Shown here in pieces: positions 37,601-40,600 of a stretch of 64,000 nucleotides of DNA. The stretch is taken from NCBI RefSeq assembly GCF_057098645.1, contig NZ_CM169472.1; one strand, given 5' to 3'. Position 1 is the stretch's first letter. Every line of letters starts with the position of its first letter. A program made the position numbers.

Positions 37601-40600
37601 TGCTAACCCGTGGCGAAAAAGTTGGCGTGCTGAAAGTTCGTCTGTACCGTCCCTTCTCCGCCAAACACTTGCTGCAAGCTCTGCCGGGATCCGTACGCAG
37701 CGTGGCGGTACTGGACAGAACCAAAGAACCCGGTGCCCAGGCAGAACCGCTCTATCTGGATGTGATGACCGCACTGGCAGAAGCCTTTAATAATGGTGAG
37801 CGCGAAACCCTGCCCCGTGTCATTGGTGGGCGCTATGGTCTTTCATCCAAAGAATTTGGCCCGGACTGTGTACTGGCGGTATTTGCCGAGCTCAACGCGG
37901 CTAAACCTAAAGCACGCTTTACGGTTGGTATTTACGATGATGTGACCAATCTGTCACTGCCGTTGCCGGAAAACACTCTGCCAAACTCGGCGAAACTTGA
38001 AGCCTTGTTTTATGGCCTTGGTAGTGATGGCAGCGTTTCCGCGACCAAAAACAATATCAAGATTATCGGTAATTCCACGCCGTGGTACGCACAGGGCTAT
38101 TTTGTTTACGACTCCAAAAAAGCGGGCGGCCTGACGGTTTCTCACCTTCGCGTGAGCGAACAGCCGATTCGTTCCGCTTATCTCATTTCCCAGGCTGATT
38201 TTGTTGGCTGCCACCAGTTGCAGTTTATCGATAAATATCAGATGGCTGAGCGTTTAAAACCTGGCGGCATTTTCCTGCTTAATACGCCGTACAGCGCAGA
38301 TGAAGTGTGGTCGCGCTTGCCGCAGGAAGTTCAGGCCGTGTTAAACCAGAAAAAAGCGCGCTTCTATGTGATTAACGCGGCGAAAATCGCCCGCGAATGT
38401 GGCCTGGCGGCCCGTATTAATACCGTCATGCAGATGGCTTTTTTCCATCTGACGCAAATTCTGCCTGGCGATAGCGCCCTCGCAGAATTGCAGGGTGCGA
38501 TTGCCAAAAGTTACAGTAGCAAAGGTCAGGATCTGGTGGAGCGCAACTGGCAGGCTCTGGCGCTGGCGCGTGAATCCGTAGAAGAAGTTCCGTTGCAACC
38601 GGTAAATCCGCACAGCGCCAATCGACCGCCAGTGGTTTCCGATGCCGCCCCTGATTTCGTGAAAACCGTAACCGCTGCGATGCTCGCCGGGCTTGGTGAT
38701 GCCCTCCCCGTTTCGGCGCTGCCGCCAGACGGCACCTGGCCGATGGGCACCACTCGCTGGGAAAAACGCAATATCGCCGAAGAGATCCCCATCTGGAAAG
38801 AGGAACTCTGTACCCAATGTAACCACTGCGTCGCCGCTTGCCCACACTCAGCTATCCGCGCAAAAGTGGTACCGCCTGAAGCGATGGAAAACGCCCCTGC
38901 CAGCCTGCATTCGCTGGATGTGAAATCGCGTGATATGCGCGGGCAGAAATATGTCTTGCAGGTGGCTCCGGAAGATTGCACCGGTTGTAACTTGTGCGTC
39001 GAAGTTTGCCCGGCGAAAGACCGTCAGAATCCAGAGATTAAAGCCATCAATATGATGTCGCGCCTGGAACATGTCGAAGAAGAGAAAATCAATTACGATT
39101 TCTTCCTCAACCTGCCAGAAATCGACCGTAGCAAACTGGAACGTATTGATATTCGTACATCGCAGCTGATTACACCGCTGTTTGAATATTCCGGTGCTTG
39201 CTCCGGTTGTGGCGAGACGCCGTATATTAAATTGCTGACTCAGCTCTATGGCGACCGGATGTTGATCGCTAACGCCACCGGCTGTTCTTCAATTTATGGC
39301 GGTAACCTGCCCTCTACACCGTATACCACCGATGCCAACGGTCGTGGGCCGGCATGGGCGAACTCTCTATTTGAAGATAATGCCGAATTTGGCCTTGGTT
39401 TCCGCCTGACGGTCGATCAACACCGTGTCCGCGTGCTGCGTCTGCTGGATCAATTTGCCGATAAAATCCCGGCGGAATTACTGACGGCGTTGAAATCAGA
39501 CGCTACGCCAGAGGTTCGTCGAGAACAGGTCGCAGCTTTACGCCAGCAACTCAACGATGTTGCCGAAGCACATGAACTGCTGCGTGACGCAGATGCACTG
39601 GTAGAAAAATCAATCTGGCTGATTGGTGGCGACGGCTGGGCTTACGATATCGGCTTTGGCGGTCTGGATCATGTATTGAGTTTGACGGAAAACGTCAACA
39701 TTCTGGTGCTGGATACGCAATGCTATTCCAACACCGGTGGTCAGGCGTCGAAAGCGACACCGCTGGGTGCAGTAACTAAATTTGGCGAGCACGGCAAACG
39801 TAAAGCGCGTAAAGATCTTGGCGTCAGTATGATGATGTACGGTCATGTTTATGTGGCGCAGATTTCTCTCGGCGCGCAACTGAACCAGACGGTGAAAGCG
39901 ATTCAGGAAGCGGAAGCGTATCCGGGGCCATCGCTGATCATCGCTTATAGCCCATGTGAAGAGCATGGTTACGATCTGGCACTCAGCCATGACCAGATGC
40001 GCCAACTCACAGCTACCGGCTTCTGGCCGCTATATCGCTTCGATCCGCGTCGTGCCGATGAAGGCAAACTGCCGCTGGCGCTGGATTCACGCCCGCCATC
40101 AGAAGCACTGGAAGAAACGTTACTTCATGAGCAACGTTTCCGTCGTCTGAATTCGCAGCAGCCAGAAGTGGCAGAACAGTTATGGAAAGATGCTGCAGCT
40201 GATTTGCAAAAACGCTATGACTTCCTGGCACAAATGGCCGGAAAAGCGGAAAAAAGCAACACCGATTAAATGCACTGGATAAGGATTATCCAATTCTAAA
40301 AAAAAAGTCCGGACGACTGTTCGGGCTTGTCTTTTTATATGCTGGAAAATCAGTGGCAATGCAATGGCCCAACAGAAAATAAAATCTGTGACAATAAAGG
40401 CATATAACCCGCGCAGAATAACGTATAGAAAATTAAAAGTATAATTTTTATTTTGTATGTATTATCTTCGATACATTCACCAGACTTATTATCATTTCAG
40501 AGGAATTATTTGATTAAGGTTTTACTTAAGGCGTAACAAATGATATTTATCGGCTAACTGAACTTCTCCTTTAGGATGTTTTCACTCCCCGAAATGGGGA

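Follow-up and report, generated by a model that had tools for sequence, protein, structure and literature searches.

The minus strand at 40298-40408 of the window (the whole 64-kb stretch of DNA that was analysed) carries micC, a member of the Rfam family RF00121 and an already known gene. The best explanation as a whole, and an almost certain one, takes the gene to be the micC of an O145:H28-type Escherichia coli strain, with an RNA that would repress ompC through its 5′ seed together with Hfq. The identity of the gene, its position, the seed, the complementarity to the ompC leader of O145:H28 strain RM13516 and the anatomy of the terminator were observed directly, whereas the literature, and not the window, is the source for the dependence on Hfq, the repression of ompC at translation, the H-NS silencing and the induction by beta-lactams or sigma-E depletion. 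The only new content is descriptive: a double substitution restricted to O145:H28, one member of which breaks a pair in the terminator. The locus contains the following features:

36745-40269, plus strand: nifJ/ydbK (pyruvate:ferredoxin/flavodoxin oxidoreductase), a 1174-aa ORF, with the RefSeq annotation of its RM13516 counterpart
40298-40408, minus strand: micC gene, 111 nt by the K-12 annotation, from the full-length RF00121 match and the K-12 alignment
40298-40306, minus strand: 3′ run of 9 U, the terminator tail and presumed Hfq-binding 3′ end, by direct reading
40305-40328, hairpin on both strands: terminator hairpin core, MicC nt 81-104, also in the cmscan alignment
40340-40374, minus strand: central stem-loop, nt 35-40 paired with nt 64-69, from the cmscan structure line
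40387-40408, minus strand: 5′ target-pairing region, MicC nt 1-22, with a predicted duplex with the ompC leader
40409-40635, no strand assigned: micC-ompN divergent control region, 227 bp, 70% AT
40636-41769, plus strand: ompN (quiescent porin), a 377-aa ORF, with the porin OmpN annotation of its RM13516 counterpart

Read directly, the minus strand runs from 40408 as GTTATATGCCTTTATTGTCACAG..., on to AAGCCCGAACAGTCGTCCGGAC, and then into nine T ending at 40298. An Rfam 15 scan of the complete 64 kb, with gathering thresholds, gave four matches in total; MicC (RF00121) was matched at 40411..40291 on the minus strand with 118.1 bits (E 5.5e-18; the gathering score of the family is 90 bits), over model positions 1-123 of 123. 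The family was matched again in a permissive rescan of 39800-41000 (E 1e-19), which beyond MicC returned only chance-level CRISPR-DR21 and Leu_leader (E about 0.8-0.9, far under thresholds). In the K-12 MG1655 record, micC (b4427) is an ncRNA at NC_000913.3 1437121-1437231, between ompN and ydbK; when it is aligned to the window, 109 of 111 positions are identical, the 5′ end falls at 40408 and the 3′ end at 40298, and MicC nt 1-66, the ompC-pairing seed included, are the same as in K-12. MicC has been known since 2004, and its length is usually quoted as 109 nt. The earlier note had proposed a minus-strand RNA of about 110 nt matching MicC, to be checked with the Rfam covariance model and an alignment to K-12 micC: the model match is above threshold at full model length, and the alignment leaves the 5′ seed region wholly conserved. 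Its placement of the RNA at 40299-40408 had the 5′ end exactly right and the 3′ end one T short (40298). The fold of the whole RNA is no more stable than that of shuffled sequences (z = -1.14), which is common among sRNAs that act in trans and have a single-stranded seed, and has no bearing on identity; nothing counts against the identity as micC, and the match is far beyond chance.

The surroundings of the gene agree with this assignment. Since both flanking ORFs lie on the plus strand and micC on the minus strand, micC and ompN are divergent, and micC and ydbK are convergent; 28 nt separate the nifJ/ydbK stop codon from the MicC 3′ end. The ORF positions and the annotation of RM13516 and K-12 thus bear out the earlier description of micC as divergent from ompN and beside ydbK. 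The locus is present in 5412 of 5426 complete E. coli genomes, with the ompN/nifJ annotation every time. As had also been pointed out, micC is absent from the gene track of the window; the matching O145 records of RefSeq/PGAP are likewise blank there, unlike the K-12 record, and this blank at micC in matching pathogen genomes calls for an sRNA-aware annotation pass. A 12-kb query around micC is about 100% identical to the O145:H28 strains RM12761, RM13516, Z1323HEC0422/0399, and C325, the next genomes being at 99.3%, and the window differs from RM13516 by five single bases in 12,001 nt. This near-identity indicates that the window comes from an O145:H28-type strain, itself outside the complete-genome set.

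In the RF00121 alignment the 5′ region of MicC (the seed) is mostly single-stranded, and the consensus pairs all form in the window copy except for one C.A pair, flagged by cmscan in the terminator stem. The stem contains two mismatches: an A.C that K-12 also has, and this C.A, which is new relative to K-12. The "GC-rich hairpin plus U-run" of the earlier note was therefore right in its hairpin and in its U-run, which is nine T long, but overstated in "GC-rich". On the plus strand, that of the nifJ/ydbK transcript, a simple scan called a terminator-like site of 10 pairs followed by GTCTTTTTAT, and the same site in K-12; the A.C mismatch of the MicC stem (K-12 included) is a G-U pair on this opposite strand. 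The MicC terminator hairpin is probably bidirectional and common to the convergent nifJ/ydbK transcript. On the MicC strand the simple terminator scan made no call in the window, and none in the K-12 control either; the blank in K-12 is due to the shared A.C mismatch, so it reflects a limit of the scan and not a property of the window allele. Hfq-binding sRNAs need seven or more U at the 3′ end (PMC5558911). As a class they carry a Rho-independent terminator whose hairpin is moderately strong; in the window copy the hairpin and the U9 tail are both present, the hairpin with a predicted core energy well short of that of K-12.

The conserved 5′ seed GUUAUAUGCCUUUAUUGUCACA is present and is complementary to the ompC 5′ leader. 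MicC nt 1-16 (40393-40408) form 16 contiguous Watson-Crick pairs with positions -30 to -15 of the leader, a site a little upstream of the GAGGG Shine-Dalgarno sequence, and nt 17-21 add five further pairs past an internal loop. The predicted energy of the duplex between nt 1-22 and ompC is -26.5 kcal/mol, as compared to a mean of -11.2 (sd 2.35) for shuffled seeds, with 0 of 1000 as good. For ompC, RM13516 stands in for the window strain; its leader was found by walking the annotation, and from -100 to +30 it shows no difference from that of K-12. A 56-nt segment of the ompC leader is exact in 5352 of 5426 genomes. On the sRNA side, window positions 40364-40411 (MicC nt 1-45 and the 3 nt before them) have an exact match in 4792 of the 5426, and a 411-nt query that includes the adjacent spacer is less than 90% identical in 413 genomes; that 40364-40411 is far more conserved than the spacer argues for selection on the RNA.

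The pairing at the ompC leader fits the published description of MicC as an Hfq-dependent antisense repressor of ompC (PMC5745476; the Hfq dependence is summarised in PMC7177473); according to a 2026 preprint (10.64898/2026.07.27.741068), OmpC is still the sole known MicC target in E. coli, with broader phenotypes reported. Under the proposed mechanism, micC would be transcribed away from ompN and end at the hairpin and U9 that face the nifJ/ydbK end; the first 16-22 nt of the RNA would anneal to the leader of the ompC mRNA shortly before the Shine-Dalgarno sequence; and, with Hfq on the 3′ hairpin and U tail, this pairing would block ribosome loading and lower OmpC synthesis.

The spacer at 40409-40635, with an AT fraction of 0.70 against 0.504 for the whole window, is the likely holder of the micC and ompN promoters. 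On the micC strand a simple promoter scan recognised no sigma-70 consensus; the sole candidate is a weak -10-like TATTCT at -12 to -7 of micC. Within the 62 nt directly upstream of micC +1 (40408) there is one difference from K-12, a G to T at -21. At 40461 (-53 from micC +1) the window has the K-12 base (A on the plus strand), and O145 strains RM13516 and RM9872 have G; a search with the 411-nt micC-ompN query ranked RM9872 best at 99.8%, which suggests no exact match among complete genomes. Both micC and ompN are reported to be quiescent and H-NS-repressed under ordinary conditions: in an hns mutant, micC-lacZ rises about 11-fold and ompN-lacZ about 6-fold, and beta-lactams and sigma-E depletion also raise both fusions (PMC5745476).

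The differences from K-12 micC are two, A67G (window 40342) and G101A (window 40308). In the cmscan alignment, A67G turns the U37-A67 pair of the central stem into U37-G67, so the pair is kept. G101A falls midway through the GC core of the terminator stem, where it replaces a G-C pair by the C.A mismatch, the sole negatively scoring non-canonical pair flagged by cmscan, at a position where the RF00121 consensus has an upper-case, conserved G. With energy models that are crude for terminators, the predicted energy of the 24-nt core hairpin on the MicC strand goes from -11.8 kcal/mol in K-12 to -4.6 in the window (7.2 lost), and that of the extended 3′ segment from -13.7 to -6.5; on the opposite strand, where the change is only from G-C to G-U, the hairpin goes from -15.8 to -13.1 kcal/mol. 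Short exact-match queries found A67G and G101A each in exactly 26 of 5426 complete genomes. A query that spans both returned the same 26, and the next-best genomes had two mismatches, so there are no intermediates. All of the serotype-labelled members of the 26 are O145, O145:H28 or O145:NM, and since the allele is fixed in 26 independent genomes of the O145 lineage, it does not stem from a sequencing error. At the local divergence of 0.7%, 0.78 changes are expected in 111 nt, and the probability of two or more is 0.18; the two substitutions are thus compatible with neutral drift, with no evidence for selection. Selection as the cause of both is unsupported by this probability, and mutual compensation between A67G and G101A was rejected, as neither the Rfam structure nor the MFE folds pair the two positions with each other.

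The substitution in the terminator raises the possibility that the gene is micC by descent but weakened or partly disabled, with G101A leading to read-through transcripts that are antisense to nifJ/ydbK, lack the U tail, bind Hfq poorly and repress ompC poorly. This is a refinement of the micC reading; we consider it possible but tentative, and on balance unlikely. The predicted fall of the core energy from -11.8 to -4.6 kcal/mol, the flagged pair at a conserved consensus G and the fixation of the allele in the 26 O145-lineage genomes speak for it, as do SgrS and RyhB, whose read-through products lose Hfq binding, the strength of sRNA terminator hairpins being tuned (PMC4509938, PMC5558911); since read-through loses Hfq binding, a weaker MicC terminator could lower functional MicC. 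However, the U9 tail and the lower stem are intact, two changes are within the neutral range, K-12 already tolerates one mismatch in the same stem, and the energy models are crude. From the predicted energies, G101A would weaken the MicC terminator and may lower the amount of correctly terminated, Hfq-competent MicC; for a core predicted at -4.6 kcal/mol with two mismatches in its stem, neither normal termination nor normal Hfq binding can be taken for granted. That the fixed O145:H28 allele measurably cuts Hfq-competent MicC, or raises read-through antisense to nifJ/ydbK, seems to us doubtful. If it does, higher OmpC or altered envelope and antibiotic-permeability phenotypes would be expected in the Shiga-toxin-producing O145:H28 lineage, which would then offer a natural case of sRNA output tuned by a mutation in the terminator stem.

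Two further readings take the transcript itself away. The hairpin could be essentially the terminator of nifJ/ydbK, and the sequence upstream of it a silent, untranscribed relic in the window strain; the simple scan did call a terminator on the plus strand only, where both mismatches turn into G-U, and the want of a consensus promoter on the micC strand and the reported quiescence and H-NS repression of micC and ompN (PMC5745476) point the same way. But K-12 gives identical scan results though MicC is experimentally detected there, and the exact retention of 40364-40411 in 4792 of 5426 genomes next to a variable spacer is also at odds with a relic, which we regard as very improbable. Similarly, a small protein gene is conceivable insofar as the mechanical ORF list contains a 59-codon TTG ORF at 40180-40359 on the minus strand, overlapping the 3′ half of micC, and nothing more. 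That ORF starts inside MicC, crosses the terminator hairpin and the U-run, lies antisense to the end of nifJ and is annotated in neither the K-12 nor the O145 records; the covariance-model match accounts for the conservation, and we give the protein reading practically no credence. MicC controls OmpC, a main beta-lactam entry route, and recent work links the fitness of pathogenic E. coli to MicC; in O145:H28, the change in the terminator stem provides a natural variant on which the relation of terminator strength to sRNA dosage could be tested cheaply.

Several other features of the window were seen in the same analysis. Two more sRNA genes gave full-length Rfam matches, FnrS at 45222-45339 on the minus strand (134.8 bits) and McaS/IsrA at 48717-48812 on the plus strand (117.4 bits), both without PGAP annotation in the matching O145 genome. 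The gene ynbD is interrupted at 8806-10112 by an IS629-like element of the IS3 family, flanked by a 3-bp GAC target-site duplication. The element has IS629-like ends TGAACCGCCCCGGG, orfA of 108 aa, orfB of 296 aa and an Rfam ALIL frameshift pseudoknot at 9662-9778, and Z1323HEC0422, near-identical otherwise, lacks it. At 42520-44960, ttcA is intact with dbpA directly next to it, so there is no prophage at the ttcA site, where K-12 has the Rac prophage. Unlike the window, K-12 has the pseudogene remnant ttcC beside uspF at this site, and O145 RM9872 has a frameshifted nleC, presumably prophage-borne, beside uspF.

In the pdxI-paaY intergenic region, 173 bp (17193-17365) are the exact reverse complement of the sequence of Z1323HEC0422, the closest genome, and of the 5205 complete E. 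coli genomes with this region, none gave a colinear cover of the segment. The apparent inversion begins 2 nt before the pdxI start codon. It splits the paaY terminator hairpin at its loop, and the predicted energy of the segment's fold goes from -29.7 to -12.9 kcal/mol. A search for flanking inverted repeats at 17193-17365 found none, and the novel junction was absent from metagenome contigs in a scan for that junction alone. The segment may be a real inversion, an assembly error or an editing artefact, and is unrelated to micC. The annotation of Z1323HEC0422 flags several pseudogenes in that genome, at places that correspond to about 4.7, 31.5, 51.2, and 62.3 kb of the window, namely ydcF (frameshift), feaR (internal stop), abgB (frameshift) and an alpha/beta hydrolase (internal stop); its paa operon appears to be truncated, as nothing but a partial hypothetical CDS separates paaF from paaX.

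Compared to the known systems, the window copy shares with K-12 MicC (b4427) the ompN-ydbK/nifJ locus, the orientation, the 5′ end and the U9 tail; K-12 differs in lacking A67G and G101A, and the window further has the G to T change at -21. The Salmonella ortholog of MicC belongs to the same Rfam family and shares the 5′ seed; this seed reportedly also targets the ompD coding sequence there and leads to decay by RNase E, a result ascribed to Pfeiffer et al. in 2009. MicF, by contrast, belongs to a different RNA family and has a different locus and target (ompF); micF is not in the window; its place in K-12 is next to ompC, at 2.313 Mb. The micF/ompC pair nevertheless resembles micC/ompN in that each is an Hfq-dependent sRNA gene divergent from a porin gene, its RNA repressing another porin by pairing of the 5′ end with the leader of that porin's mRNA (PMC5745476). 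The earlier note had called the two pairs reciprocal: the parallel layout holds (PMC5745476), but the word is loose, as neither sRNA represses its neighbour, MicC acting on ompC and not on ompN, and MicF on ompF and not on ompC. The published account describes this similar layout, finds that MicC and MicF are mostly expressed in opposite ways and that reporter fusions of micC and ompN are induced together, and reports both intergenic regions, ompN-micC and ompC-micF, to be under the influence of H-NS (PMC5745476).
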